Assembly (NCBI GenBank): GCA_030747505.1
Contig: JASLKQ010000001.1
Span: 30,571-94,570 of the forward strand
Source of the DNA: Verrucomicrobiota bacterium
GTDB taxonomy: Bacteria > Verrucomicrobiota > Verrucomicrobiia > Limisphaerales > UBA1100
DNA: 64,000 bases
Reading direction: 5' to 3'
This document shows positions 36,694 through 64,000 of the stretch, piece after piece. The notes under the pieces are model-generated. The model searched no databases, was not told the origin of the DNA, and saw nothing but the letters and a program-made list of their open reading frames with translations. Position 1 is the stretch's first letter. Every line of letters begins with the position of its first letter. The position numbers and the translations under genes are program-made.

Positions 36694-37155
36694 ATGGAGT
36701 TTGCGGATGCGGGAGGGCGTTTCGCTCTTTCGCTCGGGCTTCCCAGATCGGTCGGTGAAATATATGGCCTTTTGTATCTATCGACCAAACCCATGTCGGC
36801 CCCTGAGATTGGAGCCGCACTTTCTATAAGTAAGGGCAGTGTGAGTACGGGGACTCGGCAGCTGTTGAGTTTAGGCTTCATCCAGAAGGTATGGCTGCAG
36901 GGGGAGCGAAAAGATTATTTCGAAGCAGTGATAGAATTGGGAGAAATGGCTCAAATGGCCTATGAACGAATTGTTAAGCATCGCACACAAGAGGCTGAAC
37001 GTAGGTTCGATTCATTAAGGAATACTCTGGCCCAAGAGGAAAAAGAGATTAATCAAGAAGAGTGTGCAATTATTAGGGAGAGACTGGAAAAACTGGGAAA
37101 ATTACAAGAACGAGCCTCCAAATTGATTCCTTTGATTGAAAAGATAATACGGTGA
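36694..37155 (+). CDS. GbsR/MarR-family winged-helix transcriptional regulator
   Basis: 'GLPRSVGEIYGLLYLSTKPMSAPEIGAALSISKGSVSTGTRQLLSLGFIQKVWLQGERKDYFEA' matches the GbsR-type wHTH pattern. The stop overlaps the next start. Confidence 0.6.
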   Translation: MEFADAGGRFALSLGLPRSVGEIYGLLYLSTKPMSAPEIGAALSISKGSVSTGTRQLLSLGFIQKVWLQGERKDYFEAVIELGEMAQMAYERIVKHRTQEAERRFDSLRNTLAQEEKEINQEECAIIRERLEKLGKLQERASKLIPLIEKIIR

Positions 37156-38135
37156 TGTCACCACAAATAGCTCTATTTGGATGTGGATATTGGGGGAAGA
37201 ATATTGCACGAAATTTATATGAATTAGATGCACTTAAAATGGTATGTGACCCTTCTGATACCGGGCAGAGCAAAGCTCGGGAGATGGCTCCGGAAGTGGA
37301 TGTGGTCTCAGACTTCAAAGAGGCATTCTTGAATGAAGATATCCGGGGTGTTGCTATTGCTACGCCTGCAGAAACACATTTTGAGCTTGCGAGGTGCGCC
37401 CTGGAAGCCGGGAAGGACGTATTTGTAGAGAAGCCCCTAGCTCTTAATGCTGCTGAAGGGATACGCTTATGTCAATTAGCTCGGGATCAGGATCGGATTT
37501 TGATGGTGGGGCACCTATTGGAATATCATCCAGCGGTGGAGTATCTCAAGGGGATGACTGAAAAAAAAGAACTGGGGGAGCTGCGTTATATCTATTCGCA
37601 CCGGCTGAATTTTGGAAAGGTTCGCACTGAAGAAAATGCTTTGTGGAGTTTTGCTCCTCATGATGTGGCGGTGATTTTGCGGCTGACGGGGGAAATGCCG
37701 CAGGAAGTTCAGTGTACAGGGGGTAGTTATTTAACACCGGGACTGACTGATGTAACGATGTCTGTGCTCAAATTCGAATCCGGGGTCCGTGCACATGTTT
37801 TTGTGAGCTGGCTGAATCCCTATAAGGAGCAGAAGTTGGTTGTGACTGGATCTGAGCGAATGGCGGTTTTCAATGATGTGACGAAGGAAAAACTCGTGCT
37901 TCATGAGCAGAGGGTTGATTTTCAAGGAGCCCAACCATTGTTGAGGGATCAGGGGGCCGAAACGGTTGAATTGCCTGATGCCGAACCTTTGCGAAGGGAG
38001 TTCGAACACTTTATCCATTGTATTGAACACCGCCAAAAGCCACTGACAGATGCAGAAAGTGGGGTTCGAGTGTTGAAGGTTCTTGAGGCTTGCCAGAAAT
38101 CCATGGATTTAAACGGACAAAGCGTAATACTCTGA
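37152..38135 (+). CDS. Gfo/Idh/MocA-family NAD-dependent sugar-nucleotide 3-dehydrogenase (WbpB-like)
   Basis: 'IALFGCGYWGKNIARN' Rossmann N-terminus and 'DVFVEKPLAL' (EKP motif). It is followed directly by an LbH acetyltransferase and a DegT aminotransferase. Confidence 0.75.
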   Translation: MMSPQIALFGCGYWGKNIARNLYELDALKMVCDPSDTGQSKAREMAPEVDVVSDFKEAFLNEDIRGVAIATPAETHFELARCALEAGKDVFVEKPLALNAAEGIRLCQLARDQDRILMVGHLLEYHPAVEYLKGMTEKKELGELRYIYSHRLNFGKVRTEENALWSFAPHDVAVILRLTGEMPQEVQCTGGSYLTPGLTDVTMSVLKFESGVRAHVFVSWLNPYKEQKLVVTGSERMAVFNDVTKEKLVLHEQRVDFQGAQPLLRDQGAETVELPDAEPLRREFEHFIHCIEHRQKPLTDAESGVRVLKVLEACQKSMDLNGQSVIL

Positions 38136-38791
38136 TGGAGACAAATAACCAGATTCATCCGACGGCAGTTGTTGACCAACCTTGTATCATTGGTGCTGGA
38201 ACACGCGTATGGCATTTTAGTCATATTTGCAAAGGGGCGCAGATTGGAGAATGCTGCAGCATTGGACAGAACATATTCGTTTCCGGAGGCGTGGTGATGG
38301 GAGATCGGGTTAAGGTACAAAATAATGTGTCTTTATATGACGGCATCACAATTGAAGATGATGTTTTTCTTGGGCCCTCATGCGTGCTTACGAATATTAC
38401 CAACCCCCGTTCGCAAGTGGTTCGTAAAGCGCTCTATGAGAAAACACTTGTTCGTCGGGGTGCAACCATCGGTGCGAATGCGACGATTGTTTGCGGCACC
38501 CAAATCGGTCTTTATGCATTTGTAGGGGCCGGAGCTGTAATACGGAGTGATGTTCCTGATTATGCCATGATGCTTGGGGTGCCGGCAGTTCAAAATGGCT
38601 GGGTGAGTCGCCATGGACACAAGCTTGAATTTGATGAAGAAGGCATAGCTATCTGCCCTGAATCGAAACTGCGTTATCAACTTGAAGACGGGAGGGTGTG
38701 TTGTCTTGATTTGAGTGAAGAGAATCCTCTCCCAGAGGAATTGGCTTCCGGGAAGGGGGCTTATCAAGACTATAAGCAAAAAGAGGCTTGA
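38135..38791 (+). CDS. left-handed beta-helix N-acetyltransferase (WbpD-like)
   Basis: The start at ATG 38135 overlaps the upstream TGA (TGATG). Hexapeptide repeats include 'IGAGTRVWHFSHICKGAQIGECCSIGQNIFV' and 'VRRGATIGANATIVCGTQIGLYAFVGAGAVI'. Confidence 0.8.
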   Translation: METNNQIHPTAVVDQPCIIGAGTRVWHFSHICKGAQIGECCSIGQNIFVSGGVVMGDRVKVQNNVSLYDGITIEDDVFLGPSCVLTNITNPRSQVVRKALYEKTLVRRGATIGANATIVCGTQIGLYAFVGAGAVIRSDVPDYAMMLGVPAVQNGWVSRHGHKLEFDEEGIAICPESKLRYQLEDGRVCCLDLSEENPLPEELASGKGAYQDYKQKEA

Positions 38792-39885
38792 TGGAATTTA
38801 TTGATCTTAAAACGAGGCTGGAACGCATTCGTGAGAAAGTTGATCAGCGCGTGGCGGCGGTACTGGATCATGGGCAGTTTATTCTGGGTCCCGAGGTGTA
38901 CGAACTTGAGCAAACGCTTGCTTCCTATGTTGGGACGAAATATTGCGTTGGAGTTTCCAGCGGAACCGATTCGCTACTCATTGCACTGATGGCTCTGGAG
39001 GTTGGTTCAGGTGATGAAGTGATTACAGTTCCCTACACGTGGATTTCCACTGCCGAAGTGATAGCCTTAACGGGAGCTAGGCCGGTTTTTGTGGATATTG
39101 ACCCAGAAACCTGGAACATGGACCCTAATCTTTTGGAAGATGCCATTACTGAGAACACCAAGGCAATCATGCCTGTGGGCATTTATGGCCAGACTGCGGA
39201 CATGGATTCAATTAATCAAATTGCCAACCGCCACAATTTGCCTGTTATTGAGGATGCTGCGCAAAGTTTTGGTGCCACCTATCATGGGCGCAAGTCCTGT
39301 GCGCTTTCAACGATTGGGAGCACATCATTTTTCCCCTCCAAGCCATTGGGTGGCTTTGGGGATAGCGGTGCGCTTTTCACTGATGACGATGAGCTAGCAG
39401 AAAAATTTCGGTGGATTAGGGTCCATGGGCAGGAACGCAAGCATCGCCATCCTATCCTGGGCGTGAATGGTCGGCTGGATACAATCCAGGCTGCAGCCCT
39501 GCTTGCGATCTTTGAAATATTTCCTGAAGAAGTTGAGCAGCGTCAGGCAATTGGTTCTCAATATAATTCTCTATTATCAAAAATAGATGAGCCAAACATA
39601 GAATTGCCGCACGTCGCGGAGCAATCAACATCAGTGTACGCCCAATACACGATCCTATCTGAAGACCGGAATAATATTCAGGACCGTTTAAAATCCTCTA
39701 ATATTCCCTCAGTAGCCTATTATGCCGTGCCATTGCATTTACAGCCGGTATTTGCGGGCTTGAACCATAAATATGGTGATTTCCCGGTAACGGAGAAAGT
39801 TGCCGACCAATGTCTCAGCCTTCCGATGAGTGCTTGCTTACGGGTTGAGGATCAACAGGCTGTGGTTGAGGCCATACAATCGTGA
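38791..39885 (+). CDS. DegT/DnrJ/EryC1/StrS-family PLP-dependent sugar aminotransferase (WbpE-like)
   Basis: ATG 38791 with SD 'AAAGAGG' upstream. 'ILGPEVYELEQ', 'IEDAAQSFGA' and the PLP-Lys context 'SFFPSKPLGGFGDSGALFT'. Confidence 0.85.
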   Translation: MEFIDLKTRLERIREKVDQRVAAVLDHGQFILGPEVYELEQTLASYVGTKYCVGVSSGTDSLLIALMALEVGSGDEVITVPYTWISTAEVIALTGARPVFVDIDPETWNMDPNLLEDAITENTKAIMPVGIYGQTADMDSINQIANRHNLPVIEDAAQSFGATYHGRKSCALSTIGSTSFFPSKPLGGFGDSGALFTDDDELAEKFRWIRVHGQERKHRHPILGVNGRLDTIQAAALLAIFEIFPEEVEQRQAIGSQYNSLLSKIDEPNIELPHVAEQSTSVYAQYTILSEDRNNIQDRLKSSNIPSVAYYAVPLHLQPVFAGLNHKYGDFPVTEKVADQCLSLPMSACLRVEDQQAVVEAIQS

Positions 39886-41663
39886 CCAATCCTCCCGAGA
39901 ACCAACAGATTCCGCTGCACAAAATGTTCATCCAGATTTGGGGACTTCTGGAAACTGAAGACCGTCGCCGGGCAATGGGAGTGCTGATGCTCATCCTTGT
40001 CGGGACCCTCTTGGAAATCCTAGGGGTGGGCTTGGTTATCCCCGTGGTTACCCTGCTCAGCCAGCCTGAATCAACCTCTACTTCCTCCGAATTAAAGAGT
40101 TTGCATAAGGCCTTGGGTGCGCCGGCTCATAGTGTCTTTATGTTTTGGGCACTGGGAGGGTTGCTCTTGGTCTTTGTGATCAAAAACGCGTTCATCATGT
40201 TGTCCACCTGGTGTCAGGTACGTTTCTTGTTCAACTATCAATCCAAGCTATCTGGTAAATTGATGGCAGTCTACCTCAACCGTCCCTACGCATTCCACCT
40301 GCAACACTCGACTGCTGAGTTGCTGCAGAAAATCAACGGTGAGTTGGGATCACTCATCCATGGAGTTCTGAGCCCCATTTTGTGGATTATCAGCGAAAGC
40401 TTCGTTGTTGTCGGTTTGCTGCTGCTGGCTTTATCAGTCAATCCACTGTGTGCTCTGATCGCCATGTGCGGCCTGGGTGCGGCGTTTTGGGCCTACTACC
40501 ACTTCTTCAAGGCGCGTGTGGAATTCTGGGGTTGCCGTACTCAAGAACATTCTGAGGGCATGTATGAGCAAATGCAGTGCGGATTGGGTGGCATCAAGGA
40601 AGTGAAGATTTTTGGTAGAGAAAGATTTTTTTCCGACACGTTCGCTCTCCATGCTCAAGAATCAGCACGATACACATCTCGACATGAATTCCTAGTACAG
40701 TCGTCCCGTTACGTCATTGAGCTGTTGGTAATTACAGTTTTGCTGGGGGCAATCATGCTACTGGTTGGCGTAGGCGGCGGAACAGGAGCTGTCGTTCCCA
40801 CACTCGCCTTTTTTGCCGTTGCTGCTTTTCGACTCATGCCTTCTTCCCAGCGCCTGATGGGTAACGCCAACAGCATCCGTTACGGTGCTCGATCTCTCCG
40901 CCTGTTGCGTCCTGACCTGATTGAAATCTTTGACCAACAGGGTGCCTGTTCTGAGGAGATTAGCCCCTTCTTCTTCCGACATGAGCTCAAGCTTCGGCAT
41001 GTGTCTTTTAGATATAGCAAAGGACACGAGGAAGTGCTGAAAGAACTAAACCTTACCATTCCGCACGGAGTCATGATCGGTTTTCAAGGTAAAAGTGGTG
41101 CAGGTAAAACCACGTTGGTAGATCTCATTCTGGGGTTATTAGAGCCCACTCAAGGAGAAGTGGTAGTCGATGGGGTTTCCATCCAGAAAAACCTATCGGG
41201 CTGGCAGGCAAATATTGGCTATGTGCCCCAGAGCATCTTTCTCACGGACGATACATTGCGGCGGAATGTGGCGTTTGGGATTGAGGATCAAAAGATCGAT
41301 GAGTTACGAGTTCACGAGGTATTATGCCAAGCGCAACTTGAGGAATTCGTGAACTCCCGTTCAGAAAAACTGGAAACCTTGGTCGGTGAACGCGGCATTC
41401 GTCTTTCCGGTGGCCAACGTCAGCGTATCGGGATAGCACGTGCCCTCTACCACGACCCCGACATCCTCGTCTTGGATGAGGCTACCGCCTCGCTTGATCT
41501 CGACACTGAGGTGGAATTCATGAAAATCATTCATTCTCTGAAAAAGAAAAAAACCATCATTCTTATTTCTCACCGCCTATCTGCTATGGAAGGCTGCGAC
41601 AGGAAATATCAAATACAGGCCGGACGCTTGCAGCCCCTGGGGACTCCTTCCGCTAAAAGCTGA
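39882..41663 (+). CDS. fused TMD-NBD ABC transporter (MsbA/PglK-type lipid-linked glycan flippase candidate)
   Basis: Six-TM N-terminal half, Walker A 'GKSGAGKTT', signature 'LSGGQRQR' and Walker B 'ILVLDEATASLD'. The start overlaps the upstream stop. Confidence 0.8.
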   Translation: MTNPPENQQIPLHKMFIQIWGLLETEDRRRAMGVLMLILVGTLLEILGVGLVIPVVTLLSQPESTSTSSELKSLHKALGAPAHSVFMFWALGGLLLVFVIKNAFIMLSTWCQVRFLFNYQSKLSGKLMAVYLNRPYAFHLQHSTAELLQKINGELGSLIHGVLSPILWIISESFVVVGLLLLALSVNPLCALIAMCGLGAAFWAYYHFFKARVEFWGCRTQEHSEGMYEQMQCGLGGIKEVKIFGRERFFSDTFALHAQESARYTSRHEFLVQSSRYVIELLVITVLLGAIMLLVGVGGGTGAVVPTLAFFAVAAFRLMPSSQRLMGNANSIRYGARSLRLLRPDLIEIFDQQGACSEEISPFFFRHELKLRHVSFRYSKGHEEVLKELNLTIPHGVMIGFQGKSGAGKTTLVDLILGLLEPTQGEVVVDGVSIQKNLSGWQANIGYVPQSIFLTDDTLRRNVAFGIEDQKIDELRVHEVLCQAQLEEFVNSRSEKLETLVGERGIRLSGGQRQRIGIARALYHDPDILVLDEATASLDLDTEVEFMKIIHSLKKKKTIILISHRLSAMEGCDRKYQIQAGRLQPLGTPSAKS

Positions 41664-41664
41664 C

Positions 41665-42633
41665 ATGAAAACTACCCGATCAAAAATTCTTGTAATCGGT
41701 GGCGCAGGCTTTATTGGGAGTCATGTTGTCGCCGAGTTACTTAAAACCAAGGTTGCTGAAGTGGTCATCTACGATAATTTTGCCCGTGGTAAGGCAAAAT
41801 ATATTGCTGAATATCTGAAGGATTCACGCTGCACCGTTTGGCCCCATGGTGGCGATATTCGCGACCTGGACCTACTCAACGATGCCATGGCTGGCATGGA
41901 TGGGGTTATTCACCTTGCGGCCATGTGGCTTTTGCACTGCCGTGACTATCCCCGCACCGCCTTCCACGTAAATATAGAAGGGACGTTTAATGTTCTCGAG
42001 GCGTGTGTAAAAAATAACATTAAACGCCTGGTCTATTCCTCGTCTGCTTCTGTTTATGGCGATGCTGTTGAGGTTCCCATGACCGAGGCACATCCCTTCA
42101 AAAACCGCAATTTTTATGGGGCCACCAAGATCGCTGGTGAGGCCATGTGTCGAGCTTATTACGATCGGTATGGCCTTGACTATGTTGGCCTGCGTTACAT
42201 GAACGTCTACGGCCCACAACAGGATCAGCACGCCGTTTACTCTGGAGTCATCCCCACCATGCTCAACAAGATTGATGCCGGAGAGCCTCTTGCCGTCAAT
42301 GGAGACGGCTCTCAGGCCTACGACTTCATTTATGTCGATGATGTTGCTCGATCTAACGTACTCGCGCTTGAGGCCTCTGCCACCGACGAATTCTATAACG
42401 TAGGCACAGGTGTTCAGACTACCATCCGAGAGCTCTGTGACACCATCCTCGAATTGAAACAATCAGGCCATGAGGTTACTTACCAGCCTTACAGTGCGGA
42501 CGATTCAAGGCGACTGGTTCAGAACCGGATCGGTTGTCCCAAGCAGGCTGATGAACAGCTTGATTTCCGACACCAGATTTCCCTGCGGGAGGGCCTGCAA
42601 AAACTGATTGATTGGCGCAATGCCGGTAACTAA
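41665..42633 (+). CDS. extended SDR NAD-dependent sugar-nucleotide epimerase/dehydratase
   Basis: 'ILVIGGAGFIGSH', 'SSSASVYG' and 'YGATK' (YxxxK). Confidence 0.8.
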   Translation: MKTTRSKILVIGGAGFIGSHVVAELLKTKVAEVVIYDNFARGKAKYIAEYLKDSRCTVWPHGGDIRDLDLLNDAMAGMDGVIHLAAMWLLHCRDYPRTAFHVNIEGTFNVLEACVKNNIKRLVYSSSASVYGDAVEVPMTEAHPFKNRNFYGATKIAGEAMCRAYYDRYGLDYVGLRYMNVYGPQQDQHAVYSGVIPTMLNKIDAGEPLAVNGDGSQAYDFIYVDDVARSNVLALEASATDEFYNVGTGVQTTIRELCDTILELKQSGHEVTYQPYSADDSRRLVQNRIGCPKQADEQLDFRHQISLREGLQKLIDWRNAGN

Positions 42634-43774
42634 GCCCAGGCAAATCCAAATTGCTTCACCCGTTATAGGTCAGGACGAAATTCAAGCTGTCTGCGAAGTG
42701 CTTGAATCAGGCTGGTTAACCCAAGGACCGCGTGTGGCAGCTTTCGAGAAAAAGTTCGCCGAGATACACGGTGTCAAACACGCTATCGCTGTCACCTCCT
42801 GTACCACCGGATTGCACCTTGCGCTCACAGCTATGGGTATTGGCCTCGGTGATGAGGTCATCTTGCCTGCCTTTACTTGGGTGGCTACTGCTAACGTTGT
42901 GGTTCAGTGTGGCGCCACACCGGTGTTTGCTGATGTAGACCCAGTGACATACAACATTGATCCTCAGGATATTTTGAAGCGCATCACAACGCATACCAAG
43001 GCCGTGATGCCGGTTCATCTGTTTGGCTTGTGCTCCGAAATGGATGTGATTCAGGATATATTACCCGACCACATTAAGATACTCGAGGATGCAGCTTGTG
43101 CCTCCGGGGCAATGTACAAAGATCGGCCGGCGGGCTCCTTAGGTGACGCAGGTGTATTTTCCTTCCATCCCCGCAAGTCCATTACCACAGGCGAGGGAGG
43201 CATGATTACCACCAATGATGATCAAATCGCCGAGTTGGCGGGCATGCTGCGCAACCACGGGGCATCGATTTCGGAGGAGCAGCGCCACCGCGGCTCCAAG
43301 TCTTACCTGTTGCCGGAGTTCAACCATCTCGGATTCAACTGCCGAATGACTGATCTTCAAGGTGCACTCGGACTCGCTCAACTCGATCAACTGCAACGGT
43401 TCATCAAGGAGCGTGACCTTCGGGCAAACTGGTATACTCAGGAGCTCAGCACAATTCCGTGGCTTCGCATGCCCGAGCGGCCATGCGACGGCACCCACGC
43501 TTGGCAGGCCTTCGTGACCTATATCGACCCTGACACTGCTCCGATGTCACGTAATCACCTCATGGAACAGTTGCAGGAGGTGGGTATCTCAACTCGCCCC
43601 GGCACCCATGCGGTTCACATGCTTGGATATTATGCACAGCGATTTGGGATTAAGCCAACCGATTATCCAAGGGCAATGGATTGCGACCACAACACGATGG
43701 CGATCCCGCTCCATAACCAGATGAGCAAAGACGACTACCAACATGTGGTCGAAACCCTGAAGGCTATGAGCTAG
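42620..43774 (+). CDS. DegT-family PLP-dependent sugar aminotransferase (second copy, PglE-like)
   Basis: 'GWLTQGPRVAAFEKKFAE', 'LEDAACASGA' and the PLP-Lys context 'SFHPRKSITTGEGGMITT'. The start is ATG 42620; the track gives TTG 42608. Confidence 0.85.
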   Translation: MPVTKPRQIQIASPVIGQDEIQAVCEVLESGWLTQGPRVAAFEKKFAEIHGVKHAIAVTSCTTGLHLALTAMGIGLGDEVILPAFTWVATANVVVQCGATPVFADVDPVTYNIDPQDILKRITTHTKAVMPVHLFGLCSEMDVIQDILPDHIKILEDAACASGAMYKDRPAGSLGDAGVFSFHPRKSITTGEGGMITTNDDQIAELAGMLRNHGASISEEQRHRGSKSYLLPEFNHLGFNCRMTDLQGALGLAQLDQLQRFIKERDLRANWYTQELSTIPWLRMPERPCDGTHAWQAFVTYIDPDTAPMSRNHLMEQLQEVGISTRPGTHAVHMLGYYAQRFGIKPTDYPRAMDCDHNTMAIPLHNQMSKDDYQHVVETLKAMS

Positions 43775-43780
43775 CGATCC

Positions 43781-46755: not shown

Positions 46756-47289
46756 ATGAAAAATGAAGAACGAAATTCATCCTGCGAATCAGGGCTGTAC
46801 AAGGATATCGTTCGGCTCTGGAAGGGGTTGCAGAAAAAAACTAATGACAAATGGAGTCGAACGCTTCCTTTTGGTGACTACTTTGTCGATCGGCAAGAAA
46901 AGGCACGACTCCTGGGCTTTGGTGAAGGGGCTAGCATCTACGATTCAGCCTTGGTTATTGGGAATGTAAGGGTTGGTCAAGAAACATGGATTGGTCCGCA
47001 CACAGTGCTGGATGGATCTGGTGGTCTGGAAATCGGCGATTGGTGCTCTATCTCTGCCGGTTGTCAGATTTACTCGCACGATACTGTTGCTTGGGCGTTG
47101 AGTGCCGGTGAGGTCGACGCAGAGCGTAAATCTACTCGGATTGGATCGCGTTGCTACTTGGGTCCAAACACCGTGGTGGCTAAAGGTGTGACCATTGGCG
47201 ATGGCTGTGTAATTGGGGCCAACAGCTTGGTGATTCGTGATTTGCCTTCAGGCTCCAAGGCTTTTGGTAATCCGTGCCGTGTTAAGTAG
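46756..47289 (+). CDS. hexapeptide-repeat (LbH) acyl/acetyltransferase
   Basis: '[39 protein letters not shown]' and '[31 protein letters not shown]'. Confidence 0.75.
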
Positions 47290-47317
47290 GGTATAGTTTT
47301 TTCGAATAAGCGAAGTT

Positions 47318-48487: not shown

Positions 48488-48488
48488 A

Positions 48489-49097: not shown

Positions 49098-49099
49098 AT

Positions 49100-54504: not shown

Positions 54505-54528
54505 GCAGACCAGAATAGACCATTTATT

Positions 54529-56382: not shown

Positions 56383-56383
56383 T

Positions 56384-56818
56384 ATGAACCGAGACATTCC
56401 GGATATTGGCAGATCCGGACTCAGGCGTTTTGGGATTGTCACAGGCGTCCTAGTTGCGGTTATTTTTGGGGTTCTTTTGCCTTGGGCGTGGAAAGGTAAG
56501 CCTAACTTTCCGACGGAAGTATTGTCTATGGAAATGCCCGGTTGGCCATGGGTGACCTGTTTAATACTAAATATTTGGGCTCTTATCGCTCCCGGTTCAT
56601 TACGGTTCCCTTATCGGGCATGGATGTGCTTGGCTCTTGTGCTCGGAGCTGTCAATAGTCGCATCATACTAGGGATAGTATTTGTTTTTGTGTTGTTTCC
56701 GATTGGGTTATTATTACGCTTGGTTAAAGGAAGCCCAATGATGCGATCGGGGCCAAATGGAGAGTTCCGGATTCCATCGCCATCACGTGATCCAAGCCAT
56801 ATGGAGAAGCCTTTCTAA
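56384..56818 (+). CDS. SxtJ-like small membrane protein
   Basis: ATG 56384 lies 1 nt after the carbamoyltransferase stop. It has 3-4 TM segments. Its position after a NodU-type carbamoyltransferase matches the SxtJ-family context as I recall it. Confidence 0.5.
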   Translation: MNRDIPDIGRSGLRRFGIVTGVLVAVIFGVLLPWAWKGKPNFPTEVLSMEMPGWPWVTCLILNIWALIAPGSLRFPYRAWMCLALVLGAVNSRIILGIVFVFVLFPIGLLLRLVKGSPMMRSGPNGEFRIPSPSRDPSHMEKPF

Positions 56819-56970
56819 TGATGGAATTTCTTAAAGATCTCTACGCGTTCATGAAGGAACGGAAAAAGTATTGGTTGATACCGATTATTCTAGTCCTGCT
56901 CTTGCTTGGTGTCTTGATTGTCTTCAGCCAAGGTTCGGCTGTTGCCCCTTTCATATATACCTTATTCTAG
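56818..56970 (+). CDS. 50-aa single-TM protein (DUF5989-like); below the ORF-track length cut-off
   Basis: My own translation gives MMEFLKDLYAFMKERKKYWLIPIILVLLLLGVLIVFSQGSAVAPFIYTLF*. The ATG overlaps the upstream TAA (TAATG). 'RKKYWL.PI...L..G.L.V..QGSAVAPFIYTLF' matches the conserved DUF5989 pattern I recall. Confidence 0.6.
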   Translation: MMEFLKDLYAFMKERKKYWLIPIILVLLLLGVLIVFSQGSAVAPFIYTLF

Positions 56971-56974
56971 TCGG

Positions 56975-58147
56975 ATGAAGGATTCAGGGATGGGCGATGA
57001 GGATGGTGCTGTAGTTAATGTAACGAGCACAGCTATTCCCGTCCGATCTCGAAGGCGACTGTGGATACTCAGGCTATCGACTAGTTTAATTGGAATGATG
57101 GGTTTATTTCTCTTCTTGGAGATTACATTGAGATTTTTTCCTGTTCGTGAAAGTTTTCACGCTCAACCGGTTACATCTTTGCACCCTATAATACGATTTA
57201 CACCAAATCAGGAGTATGTTTTCAGTCGCGATTGGAATTTTACCATTGTAACAGACAAGAAAACAAACGGGGCAGGATTTTTCTCCGACGTAGAATATGT
57301 CAAGGATTCGGACAAACCGTTAGTTGCAATCATTGGAGACAGCTATGTGGAGGCTCTTCAGGTGAATAATGCGGATACCTTCCATGGGAGAATAGGCCGG
57401 GATAACTTCGAGAAAGTCCGCGTATATGCTTTTGGAGCTAGCGGCAACCCCTTGTCTAGTTATTTGAAATATGCAGAGTGGGTTGGGCAGCAATATAAGC
57501 CAGATTATTTTATCTTCAATATCGTTGGTAATGACTTTGATGAGAGTTATCCTTATTACAAAGATGGGGCTGAGGGTTTTACATATTTTCCGGAACAAAC
57601 CGACCAGTTCGATATGGCAGAGTTGGATACCCGTTTTTTGCCATTGAGGCCTTCATTCGTGGGTCGAAACCTAAGGCGATCCTATCTAGCCAGATATCTA
57701 GTTAGTAATTGTGAAATTCGGCGCATTACAGCGAATCTGCGTACCACAGCGAAAGCAGATACTTCCAATGGGAACATTGGAGAAGAGAGAATCCAGACCG
57801 GCTCAGCGGCAATTAATCATTTTATAAGACTTTTACCGGAAGCGACTGGCTTGGTGCCGGAGCGTATTCTGCTGGTTTTGGACGCGGAGCGGCAAAGGAT
57901 ATATGCATCGGAATCGAACGTTTTGAGCCAAAGCTATTACGAATGTATGATGCCTGAATTGATTGGGAAAGCTGCTCTCGCACAAATCTCGACATTAGAT
58001 ATGACTAGACCATTCACCCTCCACTACGGGCAGCACAAAAAGAGATTTGAATACCCGACGGATGGTCACTGGAATGAGATTGGTCACAGGGTTGTTGCCG
58101 AATCGATAATGAATACCGATTTCTGGTCTACAGTAATTGGGGAATAA
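56975..58147 (+). CDS. membrane-anchored SGNH/AlgX-AlgJ-like hydrolase or acyltransferase-like protein
   Basis: The start is taken at ATG 56975, 4 nt after the small ORF. TM segment 'LWILRLSTSLIGMMGLFLFLEITL'. 'VAIIGDSYVEA' is GDS block I and 'DGHWNEIGH' is DxxH-type block V. Confidence 0.45.
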   Translation: MKDSGMGDEDGAVVNVTSTAIPVRSRRRLWILRLSTSLIGMMGLFLFLEITLRFFPVRESFHAQPVTSLHPIIRFTPNQEYVFSRDWNFTIVTDKKTNGAGFFSDVEYVKDSDKPLVAIIGDSYVEALQVNNADTFHGRIGRDNFEKVRVYAFGASGNPLSSYLKYAEWVGQQYKPDYFIFNIVGNDFDESYPYYKDGAEGFTYFPEQTDQFDMAELDTRFLPLRPSFVGRNLRRSYLARYLVSNCEIRRITANLRTTAKADTSNGNIGEERIQTGSAAINHFIRLLPEATGLVPERILLVLDAERQRIYASESNVLSQSYYECMMPELIGKAALAQISTLDMTRPFTLHYGQHKKRFEYPTDGHWNEIGHRVVAESIMNTDFWSTVIGE

Positions 58148-58202
58148 GGATATTAGAGTGTAGCTGCTTTTATTCGGAAGTGAGGTTGTTCGAAGTCTTA
58201 AG

Positions 58203-60169
58203 ATGTGCGGCATAGCAGGGTTTTGTACCGGAAGTGGGTTTGAAGGCACCCGGGCCAGCAAGCAGGCAGGAGCTATGGCTGATGTGATTGGTCATCGTGG
58301 GCCAGATGACTCAGGGGTTTGGGTTGACGATAAGTCCGGAATTGCAATGGCACATAGAAGGTTGTCCATTCTAGATTTATCCACAGCGGGGCACCAGCCA
58401 ATGGTATCAGTCTCTGAACGGTACGTAATCGTGTTCAACGGAGAGATATACAACCATAATAAAATTCGCAGCGAATTGGAATTTACAGGTTATCAATGGC
58501 GAGGCACCTCGGATACAGAATCTTTTTTGGCGGGTATAGAAACATGGGGCTTGGAATTGACACTAAAAAAATCAGTTGGAATGTTTGCGTTTGCATTATG
58601 GGATAGGAAAAAAAAAGAAATTTCTTTGGCCAGAGACCGCATGGGAGAGAAGCCCCTGTACTATGGACTCAACAACGGCATTTTTTTCTTTGGCTCAGAA
58701 CTCAAAGCCCTAAAGGCTCATCCAGATTTTGAAGGGGTTGTGGATCGCGACTCTGTTGCATTATTTCTGCGCCACAATTACATACCCTCTCCTTATTCGA
58801 TATATCGGGGCATTAATAAGCTATTGCCTGGCACGTACCTTTGTATTCCTGAAAACAAACTGGCATCTGCGCACGAAATCGCGCCCACTGCTTATTGGTC
58901 ATTACAGAGGGCAGCAACCAGGGGCCAAGATAACCTCTTTTTAGGGGATGAAGAGGAAGCATTAGATGAACTTCAGAGGTTGCTCAGGCAGTCCGTTCAG
59001 GCACAATGCATTGCTGATGTTCCGCTCGGAGCATTTCTATCTGGAGGCATAGATTCATCTCTCGTAGTGGCCTTAATGCAGTCTCATGCAGCTAGACCGG
59101 TTAAGACCTTTACACTTGGATTTCAAGAAGAAGCCTATAATGAGGCAATACATGCCAGAAAAATTGCGCAGCACCTGGGCACTGAACATCATGAATTATA
59201 TGTAACACCAAAAGAGGCAATAGACGTGATTCCGAGATTGCCGAGTATGTATGATGAGCCCTTTTCTGATTCTTCTCAAATTCCAACCAATCTTGTATCC
59301 CAACTAGCGAGAAAACAAGTAACAGTTTCTCTTTCTGGCGATGGAGGTGACGAAGTATTCGGGGGATATAACCGATATCAATGGATGCGCATTATTTGGG
59401 ATCGGGTACGAAGAGTCCCTCGAGCATTCAGGAATATAGCGGCATATATAATGAGATCACAAACAGCGGACCGCTGGGATCATTTGTATGGACTGTTTAG
59501 GCCTGTCGTTCCCAACAGTTTTCGTGTGGCGCAATTTGGCTCTAAGGTAAATACGTTGGCAGATTGTATAGTGAATGAACATTCACACGAGTTATACCAA
59601 TCAGTGGTCTCGCATTGGAAGAGCCCAGCGAATGTCGTTTTAAACGGAATCGAACCAGAAACCGTATTAACCGCTGCAGAGCGGACGATACCCTTGGGCT
59701 ATCGCTGGAGCAACGGATGATGGTTCTGGATAGTTTGTCCTATTTGCCCGATGATATTTTAGTCAAATTAGATCGGGCTGCCATGAGAGAAAGCCTCGAA
59801 ACCCGAGTGCCTTTGCTTGACCATAGGGTGATTGAATTCGCGTGGAGCCTTCCTCACGAAATGAAAATAAAAGATGGGACTGGCAAATGGATACTTAGAA
59901 GACTTTTGGGGAAATATGTGCCTCCTGAGTTGTTCGAACGTCCAAAGATGGGTTTTGCTATTCCGCTTGGAAGCTGGCTGCGTGGTCCAATTCGCGACTG
60001 GGCAGAAGAACTAATCAAAGAGTCACTATTGGATCAGCAAGGTTTTTTGGACCCAAAGCCAATACGCAAAATATGGAGCGAACATGTTTCCAGCCAAAAA
60101 GATCATTCATATCTTTTGTGGGATGTGCTTATGTTTCAAGCATGGTTAAGTGAGCATAATGCACAATAA
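58203..60169 (+). pseudogene. asparagine synthase-family amidotransferase interrupted by a frameshift (two ORFs, 58203..59720 and 59615..60169)
   Basis: ORF1 has 'MCGIAG' and PP-loop 'FLSGGIDSSLV'. ORF2, in a different frame, continues with the canonical C-terminal 'RMMVLDSLSYLPDDILVKLDRAAMRESLETRVPLLD'. The frame switch must lie around 59650-59700. Confidence 0.7.
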
Positions 60170-61331
60170 TAACGGGCTGAACAGGGCTTATGGAAATAGG
60201 CCTCTCCGTATATTGTTTGTTGCTCAAGCAGATTGGGCTTTTCAGACTCACCGTATATTTCTGGCACGGTGGCTTAAACAAAGAGGGGCGATCGTTGGGA
60301 TCTTGTGCCCTCAGGTATGCAAAGCGACGGCTGAACTTAAGGCAGAAGGGTTTGAATTGTTTTCGATGGAACTTTCTCGAGAGGAGGTTTCGCTGACGCG
60401 AATAATTTCTTCAGTGAAATCTGTGCAGGCGGTTTGCAAGGATTTTAGGGCGGACGTTCTGCATTGTGTTTCTATTCGCTGTGTATTGCTGGGCTGGTTG
60501 GCAATGCGGAATGTTAAGTCCTCCCCAAGAATTATCAATCATCTGGTTGGCATGGGAAGTATGTATACTGGTGGAGATCGCTCGCTTCGATCATGGGTCA
60601 TGAAAAAATTGGTGGACTTCGGTTTGTGCAGGGCATTTCGCTTGTCGGAGGCCCATACGGTTTTTCAAAACTCTGATGATTTAAACTGGTGGATGAAACG
60701 AAGGCGTCTTCAAGACAATAAAACAGAGCTGATCCCTGGGAGTATTTCATGGGAAGGGCAGAAAGGATCTCCTGAGCCTTGCAGCAAGCCATTAAAAATT
60801 TTGTATGTGGGACGAATGCTGAAGAACAAGGGGGTGGAGGACTTATTTCAGGCGTGGTGCCACTTGCGCCAAGAAGGAGTTAAAGTGGAACTCATTCTTT
60901 GTGGGGACATCGATAAAGGAAGTCCTACTAGTCTTACGCGGGAGGATATGTATGCTTATGAGTCTGAGGCAGGGTGTAGTTGGCTTGGGTATCGCAATGA
61001 TGTTATGGAGGTCATGAGAGAGTGTAATATAGTTGTGCTTCCTTCTTATCGCGAGGGGTTTCCCAAAGTTATATTGGAGGCTGGATTAGTCACAAGAGCT
61101 GTGATCGCAACAGATGTGCCCGGATGCAGAGAGTTGGTAATTCATGAGAAATCGGGAATTCTTGTCAAGAAGGGGGACATTCGTGGTTTAGCGTTGGCTA
61201 TTCAGAAGCTTTTGAAAGATGAGACTAAAAGAAAAACTTTAGCAAAGGCACTACATCGGCGTGTTAAATCGAATTACACCGATGACACAGTTAACCCGCT
61301 TTGGTGGGAATTATATACCCGCAAGTTGTGA
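60150..61331 (+). CDS. glycosyltransferase family 4 (GT-B, group 1)
   Basis: 'LRILFVAQADWAF' and 'PSYREGFPKVILEAGLVTRAVIATDVPGCRELV'. The start is GTG 60150 or ATG 60159. Confidence 0.8.
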   Translation: MSIMHNNNGLNRAYGNRPLRILFVAQADWAFQTHRIFLARWLKQRGAIVGILCPQVCKATAELKAEGFELFSMELSREEVSLTRIISSVKSVQAVCKDFRADVLHCVSIRCVLLGWLAMRNVKSSPRIINHLVGMGSMYTGGDRSLRSWVMKKLVDFGLCRAFRLSEAHTVFQNSDDLNWWMKRRRLQDNKTELIPGSISWEGQKGSPEPCSKPLKILYVGRMLKNKGVEDLFQAWCHLRQEGVKVELILCGDIDKGSPTSLTREDMYAYESEAGCSWLGYRNDVMEVMRECNIVVLPSYREGFPKVILEAGLVTRAVIATDVPGCRELVIHEKSGILVKKGDIRGLALAIQKLLKDETKRKTLAKALHRRVKSNYTDDTVNPLWWELYTRKL

Positions 61332-62335
61332 TCTCAACTATTGGCATTTTTATCGGGGCTTCTTTTTTGACTTGGGCCCTTGGTTTTCCTGTGAGGAAGT
61401 TACTTGAGAGGTATAATTATTGGGATCACCCTAATCATAGGTCCAGTCATACAACGTCTGTTTTACGGGGTGGAGGAGTTGCTATTGTGATAACACAATT
61501 GATTGCAATTTGTTTTTTGGTTTGTCCGAGCCATCCTAGTTTTGGTTGGGTTTGGATTGTGGGAATATTGGCACTGACTACGATTGGTTTGCTTGATGAT
61601 AAACGGGACGCTCCTATTTCGTTGAGACTGGGAATTCAAGTTATATCCAGTTTGAGTATTTTACTCGTATTGAAGGGCGGTGACTGGACGGTGGTTGAGA
61701 TAACCCTTGGACTGGCTCTAATGGTATCATTTGTAAACTTCGTGAATTTTATGGATGGGATCAATGGATTGGTTGTAATGCAAATGTTGTTGATCCCGAT
61801 GGGTCTTGTGGTTCTGGTTGGTTCAGGATCTGTGTTGAGTGAGCCCAAGTTGTTGATTATTATGATTGCGTTAGTATCAGCTGGAGCTGCAGTGGGATTC
61901 CTCCCTCACAATTTTCCATCCCCCAAGATGTTTCTAGGGGATGCGGGCAGCGTGACGATTGGGTTTTCATGTGCTGTTCTCGTTCTTTGGGCGTTCAGTA
62001 CGGCATCTAGTCTAGTTCTAGAAACGACACTCCTTGTTTTGCCCTGTTACTTTTATTTTGACGGCGGCGCAACCCTTTTAAGAAGGTTGTTTTCAGGGGA
62101 AAAATGGTGGCTTCCGCATCGTGAGCATTATTATCAGAAACTGGTTCGAAGTGGCATAAGTCATGGCCGTACGACAATGATAATTGGTGGACTGCAGTTG
62201 ACGGTCACCTTTTTTGCGTGGGGCATCCTTCGATATCAAGCAGCTTGGTGGATTGCTTTGGCAGGAGTATTGGTTATATGGGGATTAGGTGCGGTATGCG
62301 CGGAATTGTTGTTCAGACGATCACTCAAAAAGTGA
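61301..62335 (+). CDS. polyprenyl-phosphate HexNAc-1-phosphate transferase (MraY/WecA/WbpL family, initiating enzyme)
   Basis: About 10 TM segments. 'GLLDDKRD', 'NFVNFMDGINGL' and 'FLGDAGS'. The start is uncertain: TTG 61301 or GTG 61328, which overlaps the upstream TGA. Confidence 0.85.
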   Translation: MVGIIYPQVVISTIGIFIGASFLTWALGFPVRKLLERYNYWDHPNHRSSHTTSVLRGGGVAIVITQLIAICFLVCPSHPSFGWVWIVGILALTTIGLLDDKRDAPISLRLGIQVISSLSILLVLKGGDWTVVEITLGLALMVSFVNFVNFMDGINGLVVMQMLLIPMGLVVLVGSGSVLSEPKLLIIMIALVSAGAAVGFLPHNFPSPKMFLGDAGSVTIGFSCAVLVLWAFSTASSLVLETTLLVLPCYFYFDGGATLLRRLFSGEKWWLPHREHYYQKLVRSGISHGRTTMIIGGLQLTVTFFAWGILRYQAAWWIALAGVLVIWGLGAVCAELLFRRSLKK

Positions 62336-62341
62336 GATGAC

Positions 62342-63247
62342 ATGTCTCCGAATGTGATCATCACTGGAGGTAGCGGTTTTTTGGGTCGCCAAGTTAGTGC
62401 CTGCCTTAATAAAGAGCACATGCTTCTGGGTTTTAGTGGCAAAGGAGGTACTGTTCAGTGTGATTTGAGACATCAAGTACCAAGAATTCCGGCCGAGGTG
62501 CAACATGTGATTCATTTGGCTGGCAGGGCCCATGCAGTAGATTTGAAAAAATCAGAAATTGAGGAGTTCTATCAAGTTAATGTTCAGGGTACCCTGAATC
62601 TATTGAAGGGACTCGAGAACTCTCGCGGGACAATTCAACAAGTGGTATATGCCAGTACTGTAGCTGTTTATGGGCTGGCGCAAGGTGAAAACATTAGTGA
62701 AAAAGAGCCGAAACTTGGAACAACCCCATATGCAAAAAGTAAATTGGAAGCTGAAGGGATTCTGCACAAATGGGCAGAAAAGCATGGGGTGAAACTGCTA
62801 ATACTCCGGCTACCTTTAATTGCAGGACCAAATCCTCCAGGGAACCTCGGAGTAATGATTAATGCACTGAAACGTAATAGGTACTTGTCTATTGGAGAAG
62901 GAGCAGCACGACGCAGCATGGTCATGGGAACGGATGTCGGAAGATTATGTTCACGGTTGAAGGGATCTGAGGATGGAATATACAATTTGACCGATGGCTG
63001 CCATCCAAGCATCCGCGAACTGGAACAATTAATTTGCAATCAATTAGGCAGATCTATGCCAAGAAGAATTCCTCGATGTGTGGCAAAAGCGATTGGCTCA
63101 TGCGGTGATTTTTTTGGGAGATATTCACCGGTCAATTCCAATAAGATAGACAAACTGCTAAGCACATTGACTTTTACTGATTCAGTGGCAAAGCGACAAT
63201 TAGATTGGAATCCAAGATCTGTTATCGATAATTTTACTCTTGATTAA
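62342..63247 (+). CDS. NAD-dependent epimerase/dehydratase-family SDR (WbpK-like reductase/epimerase)
   Basis: 'VIITGGSGFLG', 'YASTVAVYG' and 'YAKSK' (YxxxK). It sits between WbpL-like and WbpM-like genes. Confidence 0.75.
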   Translation: MSPNVIITGGSGFLGRQVSACLNKEHMLLGFSGKGGTVQCDLRHQVPRIPAEVQHVIHLAGRAHAVDLKKSEIEEFYQVNVQGTLNLLKGLENSRGTIQQVVYASTVAVYGLAQGENISEKEPKLGTTPYAKSKLEAEGILHKWAEKHGVKLLILRLPLIAGPNPPGNLGVMINALKRNRYLSIGEGAARRSMVMGTDVGRLCSRLKGSEDGIYNLTDGCHPSIRELEQLICNQLGRSMPRRIPRCVAKAIGSCGDFFGRYSPVNSNKIDKLLSTLTFTDSVAKRQLDWNPRSVIDNFTLD

Positions 63248-63289
63248 GAAAATATATATGAGGGATTCATAATGGTATTTTGATCTACA

Positions 63290-64000
63290 ATGCAGCGGGA
63301 ATTATCACAATTCACCTTAAGTAAAAACCAACGTGCTATATTATTAGCGTTTATCTACGTGGATATATTCGTATTTTCCACGTGGCTCGCTTACAATTTA
63401 CGATTCGACTTTGGGGTTTTGCCGGCCGAACACCAACCTCACATGAGAACAATTTGGAGTTGGGTTTGGTTGGTTAAATTGGGGGCCTTGTGGGCGACAG
63501 GGCAATTCTCTAGTTTACTGAGTTATTTTAGCCTCCCCGATTTGCAACGTATAACGGTTGGTCAACTGCCGATAACTTTGGCCCTAATCATAGGCTGGTA
63601 TTGTGTGGATGCACTGCACTATATGTCGCGTAGTGTTATCATCATGGATGCTATGATTTCCGTGGCAGGTATTGCGGCTATGCGCCTAATGTTCCGTGTT
63701 TTAAGGCTGCGCACAGAGGAGGACAGTACGGCCGCAAATAAAATTCATGTGGCCATTGTGGGTGCCGGGGGAGCTGGAGCGGCTCTAGCTCGTGAACTTC
63801 AAAGCAACAGTAAATATGATCCAGTTGCTTTTTTTGATGATTCTGAAGCAAAGCGGGGGACACAGGTTCATGGCATCAATGTTTATGGCTCCATTGAGTC
63901 TCTTATAGATCACGACCTTCAAGGTGTTACCGAGGCCATTATTGCCATGCCTTCAGCGAACGGGAAAAGGATTCAGGAGATCGTTCACTTTCTGAACGAT
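63290..64000 (+). CDS. membrane-bound polysaccharide biosynthesis protein, UDP-HexNAc 4,6-dehydratase type (CapD/WbpM/PglF family); 3' end beyond the window
   Basis: Not in the ORF track because no stop falls in the window. My own translation from ATG 63290 is open for 237 codons to the window edge: MQRELSQFTLSKNQRAILLAFIYVDIFVFSTWLAYNLRFDF..., with 4 TM segments and then the Rossmann motif 'VAIVGAGGAGAALAREL...PVAFFDD...G..V.G..V.G'. Confidence 0.8.
   Translation, partial: MQRELSQFTLSKNQRAILLAFIYVDIFVFSTWLAYNLRFDFGVLPAEHQPHMRTIWSWVWLVKLGALWATGQFSSLLSYFSLPDLQRITVGQLPITLALIIGWYCVDALHYMSRSVIIMDAMISVAGIAAMRLMFRVLRLRTEEDSTAANKIHVAIVGAGGAGAALARELQSNSKYDPVAFFDDSEAKRGTQVHGINVYGSIESLIDHDLQGVTEAIIAMPSANGKRIQEIVHFLND

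Follow-up and report, generated by a model that had tools for sequence, protein, structure and literature searches.

To what is the glycan attached that is built by a long, single-strand run of sugar genes in a marine Verrucomicrobium? The question is raised by a 64,000-nt stretch of a Verrucomicrobiota genome (assembly GCA_030747505.1, contig JASLKQ010000001.1, positions 30,571 to 94,570 of the forward strand), here called the window, in which an operon of about 27 kb stands back to back with the gene of a homologue of the STT3/PglB oligosaccharyltransferase (OST). The locus is likely the glycan-assembly operon of a PglB-type system for N-linked protein glycosylation. The argument is carried by the linkage of the OST gene to the operon and by a candidate acceptor protein encoded beyond its other end.

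Every long open reading frame (ORF) from the NusG paralogue at 35969, and from 36694 onwards, through 64000 lies on the + strand, with 27 co-directional genes between 35969 and the window edge. When plausible start codons are assumed, 14 junctions have an overlap or a gap of at most 4 nt (37152/37155, 38135, 38788/38791, 39882/39885, 41663/41665, 45667/45670, 48487/48489, 49094/49097, 52466/52469, 53335/53338, 56382/56384, 56818, 56970/56975 and 61328/61331). A first-pass annotation of the window had placed all genes from 36694 to the edge on the + strand, with at least 13 such junctions. Both statements are borne out, with the train beginning at 35969 and all the junctions it named being among the 14. 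Gene classes were assigned by Pfam and NCBIfam profile scans of the window ORFs, and these recovered every enzyme class that the annotation had named. Two of its claims need amendment. The PglB homologue is indeed adjacent, at 33209-35878, but it is encoded on the minus strand, divergently from the operon and outside it. Two AsnB-like amidotransferases are present as described, but a 1-nt deletion breaks the reading frame of the second in the window.

The OST is an 889-aa protein with the Pfam domains STT3 (PF02516, 62 bits) and STT3-PglB_core (PF21436, 69 bits), both over their gathering scores, and it matches the C. lari PglB structure 5ogl at E 5e-47. It keeps the equivalents of C. lari PglB D56, D154xD156, E319 (TIxE), R331 and R375, which align to D90, D193/D195, E399, R411 and R455. 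The peptide-binding motif WWD(Y/W)G occurs as WWDWG at residues 571-575, with W, W, D and G invariant. The catalytic and sequon-binding residues are invariant throughout a 17-member alignment spanning 25-49% identity. The nearest genome matches (44-48% identity) come from marine Verrucomicrobiales and Verrucomicrobiota metagenome-assembled genomes (MAGs) and one single-cell genome, followed by Pedosphaera, Opitutales and Pirellulales and then by Campylobacterota, whose PglB proteins are 27-31% identical. On this evidence the protein is best described as a distant clade of the PglB family, and it appears to follow the rule of an acidic residue at position -2, that is, the extended sequon D/E-x-N-x-S/T. 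Larger members of the family also occur: a product annotated as STT3/PglB with 2213 aa (L088 1-5264, minus strand; comparison loci carry L numbers), a giant OST fusion at a locus head like that of the window, and a 1549-aa protein (P0051).

An STT3-like protein need not glycosylate proteins at asparagine. Its activity might be limited to releasing the lipid-linked glycan by hydrolysis as free periplasmic oligosaccharide, or the glycan might go to a non-protein acceptor. The length of 889 aa, the identity of only 27-31% to the Campylobacterota enzymes and a score far below the PglB equivalog cut-off are in favour of such a role, and C. jejuni PglB also releases free oligosaccharide. However, WWDWG and the -2-binding R411 are invariant in the family, and a secreted protein syntenic with the operon shows exactly the acidic -2 bias that R411 predicts. 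A role of the OST outside protein glycosylation is considered highly improbable.

The linkage of the OST to the glycan genes is not peculiar to the window. The gene order, with the OST on one side and a NusG paralogue, usually a MarR-like gene and glycan genes running away from it on the other, recurs in 12 other Verrucomicrobial loci (L007-L012, L015-L018, L088 and L089), in which the OST is 33-48% identical. A NusG paralogue of 52-62% identity stands back to back with the OST in L007-L012 and L015-L018, and in most of them a MarR-like gene comes next. Co-inheritance of the OST and the locus in relatives, which the first-pass annotation had put forward as a test, is therefore seen as positional co-inheritance in 12 other loci.

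Downstream of this head, gene content changes from locus to locus. The GFO-LbH-DegT head of the window cassette recurs in L011 and L017 at 65-84% identity, and L011 also shares SDR-DegT-AsnB and has a WbpA-type 6-dehydrogenase that is absent from the window. L088 and L089 begin with the OST, NusG, MarR-like, GFO, LbH, DegT and ABC genes, the ABC protein being 75% and 70% identical to that of the window, and continue with wholly different genes (nonulosonic-acid, formyltransferase or radical-SAM genes). L012 is a short operon ending in AsnB-GT4c-WecA, and L008 contains two UDP-sugar dehydrogenases. Between conserved ends, the operon thus carries a hypervariable stretch of exchangeable cassettes; the OST, the NusG paralogue and its leader form one end, and GT4c, WecA, PglF and the acceptor gene the other.

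Where the contig reaches the far side of the OST, in five loci, an FG-GAP protein is found at 73-80% identity. Its counterpart in the window (29693-31918), an FG-GAP/ASPIC (CRTAC1-like) protein with TPR repeats and one extended sequon, is the most conserved neighbour of the OST, reaching 73-80% where the OST itself is only 44-48% identical. The label of L008 (PATZ01000028.1) reads 'Methanobacteriota archaeon'. Its gene order is that of the Verrucomicrobiales loci, with an FG-GAP neighbour at 73% identity, and the contig is probably mis-binned.

The other end of the operon leads to the candidate acceptor. Several metagenome contigs share the locus, as found by exact-protein look-up, and one of them (L001) is 99.07% identical to the window over 11.66 kb. 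The PglF-like protein, of which the window holds the N-terminal 237 aa (63290-64000, +; CoA_binding_3 and PglD_N), is complete in L001 at 616 aa with Polysacc_synt_2 and is the final gene of the operon. A convergent gene begins 25 nt past it, and a hairpin with a T-run is located in this gap (L001 12816-12833). The convergent gene (L001 12825-16757, minus strand), about 1.9 kb beyond window position 64000, encodes a secreted protein of 1310 aa with a signal peptide and no cysteine. The 10 kb beyond the operon also contain genes for a MacB-like permease, an ABC ATPase, a 614-aa protein and a metallo-beta-lactamase-fold protein. Neither the 1310-aa protein, nor its homologue in L013, nor the 614-aa neighbour has a Pfam match at E<=0.05.

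The 1310-aa protein has 27 N-x-S/T sites, and 10 of them are extended sequons, as compared with 1.5 expected; a count of 10 was reached in 0 of 20000 shuffles. Of 213 ORFs of at least 250 aa taken from the window and from 22 comparison loci, none but this protein and its L013 homologue has more than five, and the next-highest count belongs to a 319-aa ORF of a Campylobacterota locus. Nearby proteins were also considered as acceptors (FG-GAP/ASPIC, VIT-vWA, LRR and others) and were rejected, having 0-1 extended sequons, the chance level. The L013 homologue (5676-9557; 41-47% identical, according to the alignment used) lies directly upstream of a second OST paralogue and in the same direction, in a MAG that also holds the OST-anchored glycan operon L011.

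A metagenome scan returned 29 more loci of this family, with homologues in L092-L112. The acceptor gene is convergent with PglF in nine distinct lineages, and in four of these with PglF<WecA. A run of p614 > ABC ATPase > MacB-like genes is found upstream of it in five of the nine. In L001 the corresponding genes (16938-20588, minus strand) are co-directional with it, and the three may form a dedicated export or anchoring system for the 1310-aa protein.

Twelve full-length homologues have 4-14 extended sequons each (1.0-1.6 expected), spread over 36 alignment columns, 14 of which are unique to one sequence. To judge from this alignment, sequon density is kept while positions turn over. An acidic residue occupies position -2 in 41% of 331 sequons (Asp in 33%), compared with a background of 9%, with 5.6% at the same position of non-sequon asparagines and with 2-19% at other positions flanking the sequons. 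The forward motif occurs 137 times in the family and the reversed motif 13 times. Such a bias reads as the signature of the bacterial PglB sequon, and it agrees with the invariant R411, the equivalent of R331, which predicts it. The 1310-aa protein is accordingly presented here as a candidate N-glycoprotein acceptor.

A flippase candidate is encoded within the operon at 39882-41663 (+), as a fused ABC half-transporter in which PF00664 and PF00005, the transmembrane and nucleotide-binding domains, lie in one 593-aa chain. Its best PDB match is C. jejuni PglK (6hrc/5c73, E 2e-82, residues 19-584). The alignment is ungapped over the external-helix region between transmembrane (TM) segments TM1 and TM2, and three of the four PglK cavity arginines are kept (R260, R302 and R309, but not R86). 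The ABC gene is linked to an OST in the window, L088 and L089. Proteins of the family at only 43-46% identity are likewise preceded directly by a small MarR-like gene, but the 10 kb covered to each side of them contain no OST.

The genes of a polymer pathway were searched for on both sides of the OST. A hydropathy scan of the 64 kb found no ORF with 8-12 TM segments of Wzx, Wzy or WaaL size, and in the window no Polysacc_synt, Wzy_C or Wzz match indicated a Wzx, Wzy or Wzz protein in Pfam scans. A Wzm/Wzt pair (an ABC-2 permease with a separate ATPase) was likewise absent from the window when searched for with Pfam and with the proteins of relatives as queries. Pfam scans detected no Wza, Wzz or Wzy_C domain in 20 ORFs upstream of the OST, some 8 shorter upstream ORFs lying outside the scan. 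The 10 kb past 64000 (L001-L005) contain no Wzx, Wzy, Wzz, WaaL, Wza or Wzm/Wzt, nor an ORF with 8-12 TM segments of matching size, which answers the question raised by the first-pass annotation about the DNA beyond the window edge. Its statement that Wzx, Wzy, Wzz, WaaL and Wzm/Wzt are missing is upheld over 74 kb. A 4-TM ORF (32076-32717) and a PAP2 protein (24066-25103) were considered as ligase or flippase, and both were ruled out by size and family.

The proposed pathway starts with the transcription of the operon. The NusG paralogue (35969-36487, likely true start 36011, +; Pfam NusG) would be of the specialised UpxY/RfaH/LoaP-like kind, its NCBIfam scores of 68 bits for UpxY, 55 for LoaP and 52 for RfaH being all below the cut-offs, and it adjoins the OST in the 12 other loci. 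The first gene past the leader (36694-37155, +) encodes a small MarR-like winged helix-turn-helix protein with weak MarR_2 and CudC matches and 53-67% identity in relatives. The 206-nt spacer between these two genes has two conserved elements. The first is a palindrome, GTTnAn8TGAAC (36538-36558), recovered from the alignment of this spacer; it is present in 11 of 11 loci that carry the MarR-like gene and absent from the leaders of L010 and L012, both of which lack that gene. The MarR-like protein probably uses this palindrome as its operator.

The second element, GAAnnGACnGGCnCGnnGnGT (36597-36617, +), is 21 nt long and occurs once in the window, compared with 0.01 occurrences expected. It is also found once in each of the 12 other Verrucomicrobial OST loci (13 of 13 leaders with the window), always just downstream of the NusG paralogue, and in 0 of 79 other loci. 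It can fold into a 5-bp hairpin with one compensatory pair. By analogy with RfaH/ops, UpxY and LoaP, it is a candidate ops-like site at which the NusG paralogue may be recruited or pausing may occur, and recruitment there would explain read-through of the 27-kb operon. In the proposed scheme, a promoter in the spacer, with the palindrome as the likely operator of the MarR-like protein, would drive a transcript of about 27 kb, and the NusG paralogue recruited at the 21-nt element would keep RNA polymerase processive. Consensus scans for promoters and terminators gave counts at the level of shuffled sequence, both in the window (30 vs 26.6 and 24 vs 20.2) and in L001 (26 vs 24.0 and 15 vs 12.8).

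The sugars that this transcript would provide for can be read in part from its enzymes. Three genes at its head encode a Gfo/Idh/MocA sugar-nucleotide 3-dehydrogenase of the WbpB/GnnA-like type (37152-38135, +), an LbH 3-N-acetyltransferase of the WlbB/WbpD-like type (LbH1, 38135-38791, +) and a WbpE-like DegT aminotransferase (DegT1, 38788-39885, +). DegT1 matches WbpE (3nu7) at E 1e-119, and LbH1 matches the lipopolysaccharide-biosynthesis acetyltransferase 3mqg, which we take to be a WlbB/WbpD-type enzyme, at E 2e-71. The dehydrogenase, recognized by its Pfam match, has the oxidoreductases 3c1a and 7bvj as its nearest PDB structures and UDP-GlcNAc 3-dehydrogenase as its best NCBIfam match (142 bits, below cut-off). 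The three enzymes together would yield a 2,3-diacetamido-2,3-dideoxy sugar.

Past the ABC gene comes SDR1 (41665-42633, +), a candidate WbgU/WbpP-like UDP-N-acetylhexosamine (HexNAc) or HexNAcA 4-epimerase that matches PDB 6dnt, WbgU and WbpP at E 1e-39 to 1e-46. It is followed by a second DegT aminotransferase (DegT2, 42620-43774, +) of the 4-aminotransferase type, which resembles perosamine synthetase and ArnB in the PDB and scores 335 bits, below cut-off, for PseC in NCBIfam. The next genes are for an AsnB-type glutamine amidotransferase (43781-45670, +; Pfam and NCBIfam), a SAM methyltransferase (45667-46656, +; Pfam) and a second LbH acetyltransferase, WcaF/NeuD-like (LbH2, 46756-47289, +; Pfam and NCBIfam).

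The acetamidino module (47318-49861, +) comes next. WbuX (47318-48487; TIGR03573, 234 bits, cut-off 203), HisH (48489-49097; TIGR01855, 237 bits) and AglZ/HisF2/WbuZ (49094-49861; NF038364, 348 bits, cut-off 310) all exceed curated cut-offs, and would together make an acetamidino group. The 443-aa protein encoded next (49890-51221, +) belongs to a large unnamed family. Its AlphaFold model (pLDDT 89.6) matches GT4-type GT-B enzymes (HepE, BshA, MshA and PglA) with Foldseek E values of about 1e-13. The predicted structure supports a GT-B fold, upholding the earlier designation of this gene as a candidate GT-B. A polymerase or a protein other than a glycosyltransferase was ruled out by the confident GT-B model and by fewer than three hydrophobic segments. 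Hundreds of proteins share 47-59% identity with it, mostly without a Pfam match (family loci L086 and L087, 10001-11347). That it also directly follows WbuX-HisH-HisF in L087 suggests that it is dedicated to the acetamidino sugar.

Three GT4 glycosyltransferases follow. The first (GT4a, 51357-52469, +) has PglH and PglJ as best NCBIfam matches, far below cut-off; the second (GT4b, 53335-54504, +) is separated from it by a second SAM methyltransferase (52466-53338, +); the third (GT4c, 60159-61331, +; Pfam), 46-49% identical in L012 and L094, stays adjacent to the initiating enzyme in relatives. Between GT4b and GT4c lies a trio comprising a carbamoyltransferase (54529-56382), SxtJ (56384-56818) and DUF5989 (56818-56970), which spans 54529-56970 on the + strand. 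The last two are small membrane proteins (144 aa and 50 aa), and the trio is intact in the near-identical L001 and L006. It is followed by a membrane-anchored SGNH/AlgX-like protein (56975-58147, +; weak ALGX and GDSL matches), which has one N-terminal TM segment with RSRRR ahead of it and probably faces the periplasm. The second AsnB-type amidotransferase (AsnB2, 58203-60169, +) gives a split Pfam match because of its frameshift: relative to L001, L003 and L006, in which the gene is intact at 655 aa, 1 nt is deleted near 59679, outside any homopolymer run. The frameshift is either a strain-level pseudogene mutation or an assembly error.

The operon closes with the genes that would provide the first sugar. 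The initiating enzyme is a polytopic WecA/WbpL-type polyprenyl-phosphate HexNAc-1-P transferase (61328-62335, +; PF00953) with 12 hydrophobic segments. It is the only one found in Pfam scans of the window, where no PglC-type monotopic PF02397 protein was detected. SDR2 (62342-63247, +; Pfam Epimerase, no equivalog match) is a candidate 4-reductase that would act after the dehydratase, and the PglF-like protein described above is a membrane UDP-GlcNAc 4,6-dehydratase of the PglF/WbpM type. DegT2 and LbH2 could fill the roles of PglE and PglD, but neither has an equivalog match, and the position of SDR2 beside PglF suggests a 4-reductase route instead. The dehydratase and SDR2, possibly with DegT2 and LbH2, would make a 6-deoxy-HexNAc nucleotide sugar of the N-acetylquinovosamine (QuiNAc), N-acetylfucosamine (FucNAc) or bacillosamine type. 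The WecA/WbpL-type enzyme would load it on undecaprenyl phosphate, providing the C2-acetamido reducing end needed by PglB enzymes.

The locus has one initiating transferase and four extending GT-B transferases; if each acts once, the chain would therefore have about 5 sugars. This fits the heteroglycan of about 4-6 residues suggested in the first-pass annotation. The four GT-B transferases would extend the chain with residues including the 2,3-diacetamido-2,3-dideoxy sugars of the WbpB/GnnA-, WbpE- and WlbB-like enzymes. One residue would bear the acetamidino group from WbuX/HisH/HisF2, the AsnB enzymes would amidate uronic acids, and methyl, carbamoyl and acetyl groups would be added. The PglK-like half-transporter would then flip the finished lipid-linked oligosaccharide to the periplasmic face, where the divergently encoded OST would transfer it en bloc to the asparagine of D/E-x-N-x-S/T, with the 1310-aa secreted protein, convergent just past the operon, as the prime acceptor candidate. 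The logic of the pgl pathway proposed at first sight, with assembly on undecaprenyl-PP, flipping by PglK and transfer by PglB, finds support in the OST residues, the PglK homology, the lack of a polymerase or ligase in 74 kb and the co-inheritance of the OST.

These same enzymes also invite another interpretation, that of an ordinary lipopolysaccharide (LPS) O-antigen or capsule locus. It would be Wzy-independent with a Wzk-like flippase, as in Helicobacter pylori, with WaaL encoded elsewhere or with export of a polymer, and the OST would be functionally unrelated to it. Its enzymes are of the types seen in O-antigen clusters (WbpE at E 1e-119, WlbB-type at E 2e-71, WbuX/HisH/HisF, WecA/WbpL and WbpM), to the point that gene content is nearly that of such a cluster, with WbpB/D/E-like, HisH/HisF/WbpG-like and WbpK/L/M-like proteins, as in the P. 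aeruginosa O5 wbp cluster. The same cassette, LbH-DegT-...-SDR-DegT-AsnB-LbH-WbuX-HisH-HisF-GT-B, is followed by Wzx, and also by probable polymerase genes, in the unrelated 3.8-Mb genome of L087. L091 has the ABC+MarR pair beside Poly_export, Wzz and NusG genes, and L090 has it near Wzm/Wzt, with no OST within 10 kb on either side of the pair, and a Wzm/Wzt pair is present inside the OST-anchored locus L008 itself. The initiating enzyme, too, is of a kind found in ordinary O-antigen or capsule loci. Because the same ABC family occurs in polysaccharide loci with no OST in the 10 kb to either side, and the same sugar cassette in a Wzx-dependent locus, a PglK-like ABC protein and the lack of Wzy are not by themselves diagnostic of N-glycosylation. 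Nevertheless, the OST is positionally locked to the head of the locus in 12 other loci across deep divergence, the sequon-enriched secreted family is locked to its tail and is once found beside a second OST, and no WaaL, Wzz or Wza is present in 74 kb. With these observations, an O-antigen or capsule locus beside an unrelated OST is improbable.

It is also conceivable that a single undecaprenyl-PP glycan serves both the N-OST and WaaL or another transferase, ending up on protein and on LPS or another surface polymer. O-OST/WaaL systems that use one lipid-linked pool provide a precedent, the evidence for N-glycosylation and the O-antigen-like features would both apply, and the relatives with Wzm/Wzt in the anchored locus suggest that polymers can be made there. 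However, there is no ligase in the 74 kb examined and no datum requires a second acceptor, and a donor shared in this way is regarded as unlikely.

The likenesses to polysaccharide loci weigh against N-glycosylation as the function of the operon, and so do several other points. The OST scores 208 bits for NCBIfam PglB (NF050801) with a cut-off of 1300. The ABC protein ranks PglK first (305 bits, cut-off 1000), then HepA (247) and MsbA (239), all below equivalog cut-offs, and the initiating enzyme matches the WecA model at 83 bits, below cut-off. L011 has no ABC gene at the equivalent position, and no flippase is present in the 10 kb covered for L012. A UDP-sugar 6-dehydrogenase was not found in the window with the proteins of relatives as queries, which counts because uronic acids are implied by the presence of two AsnB enzymes. 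The gene of the candidate acceptor is not part of the window, contigs of 99% identity being the only source for it, and WaaL may be encoded elsewhere in the genome, 74 kb of which were examined. Finally, the steps from transcription to en bloc transfer are inferred from homology, and the choice of acceptor joins an observed sequence statistic to a putative role.

Comparison with characterized systems places the N-glycosylation reading in context. With the pgl systems of C. jejuni and C. lari, the locus shares an OST of the PglB type that is a single subunit and has identical residues for catalysis and sequon binding, a candidate flippase of the fused, PglK-like ABC kind, a PglF-like membrane 4,6-dehydratase, GT4 enzymes, a predicted short undecaprenyl-PP glycan, the absence of a polymerase and, in the candidate acceptor, D/E-x-N-x-S/T. 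It differs in that initiation is by a polytopic WecA/WbpL-type enzyme (PF00953) rather than by monotopic PglC, and in that the OST is 889 aa long, divergently transcribed and less than 31% identical. The operon of about 27 kb encodes some 15 enzymes for tailoring (acetamidino, amidation, carbamoylation and methylation); it comes with its own NusG paralogue, a leader element, a MarR-like gene, a hypervariable middle and a Verrucomicrobiota host. A single large sequon-rich protein is syntenic with it, a hint that the system is dedicated, not general.

The P. aeruginosa O5 wbp and Bordetella wlb clusters share with the locus the WbpB/WbpE/WbpD (WlbA/C/B)-type synthesis of 2,3-diacetamido sugars, the HisH/HisF/WbpG-type acetamidino module, WbpL-type initiation and a WbpM-type dehydratase at the operon end. 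By contrast, the window lacks Wzx, Wzy, Wzz and a WbpA-type 6-dehydrogenase, a PglK-like ABC protein takes the place of the flippase, and the linked transferase is an N-OST, not WaaL. The Wzk pathway of Helicobacter pylori resembles the locus as read here in lacking Wzy, in starting with a WecA-type enzyme, in completing assembly on the cytoplasmic side and in using an ABC flippase homologous to PglK. There, however, the glycan is ligated by WaaL to lipid A-core, whereas here a PglB-type OST is linked and no WaaL is found in 74 kb. The Agl pathways of Methanococcus maripaludis and M. voltae are similar in their 2,3-diacetamido uronic acids, as predicted for the locus, an AglX/Y/Z-type acetamidino group, carboxyl modification and an STT3-family OST; but they are archaeal, with dolichol-linked donors, an AglB-type OST and a plain N-x-S/T sequon, while the best matches here are bacterial. 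Finally, RfaH with its ops element, UpxY of Bacteroides capsule loci and LoaP are likewise NusG paralogues heading a long polysaccharide operon with a conserved short leader element. The matches of the present paralogue are below all three cut-offs, the 21-nt element is unrelated to ops in sequence, and its role here is putative.

Characterized PglB systems have been listed from Campylobacter, a few species of Helicobacter including H. pullorum, Desulfovibrio and the three deep-sea-vent bacteria Nitratiruptor, Sulfurovum and Deferribacter (PMC6025236). The N-glycan of H. pullorum contains a HexNAc uronamide made by WbpO/WbpS-type enzymes (PMC6025236), and is therefore a precedent for AsnB-type genes in an N-glycan pathway. 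A full-text literature search returned no description of an N-OST (PglB/STT3) system in Verrucomicrobiota or Planctomycetota.

The surroundings of the locus are those of an ordinary chromosome. The 33 kb upstream encode MutS, ComM/ChlI, alanine dehydrogenase, EPSP synthase, a polyprenyl synthase, and FG-GAP and vWA proteins. A tRNA-Ser(GGA) is located at 28554-28643, and a tRNA-Ala(CGC) at 33082-33157 (minus strand), 52 nt from the 3' end of the OST gene. Over 32000-64000, Rfam gave nothing besides one tRNA. G+C content is about 0.52 in the first 10 kb and drops to 0.44-0.48 over the glycan locus.

What kind of system would this be? The conserved ends and the single sequon-rich neighbour raise the possibility, offered tentatively and held to be somewhat doubtful, that it is dedicated rather than general: the host, a bacterium of the PVC group, would be coated by one major, heavily N-glycosylated S-layer-like protein, as archaea are, and cassette exchange would diversify the glycan between strains as it does for O-antigens. 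The OST, the NusG paralogue with its leader, the hypervariable cassettes, GT4c-WecA-PglF and the 1310-aa protein with its own MacB-type ABC genes may then form one super-locus, and phages or grazers would be the likely selective pressure for glycan variation.

The locus represents a complete and testable candidate system in an abundant marine phylum, comprising an OST, a candidate flippase, an unusual predicted donor and a candidate acceptor with 10 sequons. The chemistry predicted for the donor, with diacetamido, acetamidino, amidated and carbamoylated sugars, is what makes it unusual. The comparison of loci reveals an organisation of conserved ends and a swappable middle, for which the NusG paralogue and the leader element are candidate controls. 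For glyco-engineering, it adds a divergent clade of OSTs and new cassettes for glycan tailoring. It also suggests, for marine microbiology, that closely related Verrucomicrobia may differ in the N-glycoproteins of their surface as well as in LPS or capsules.

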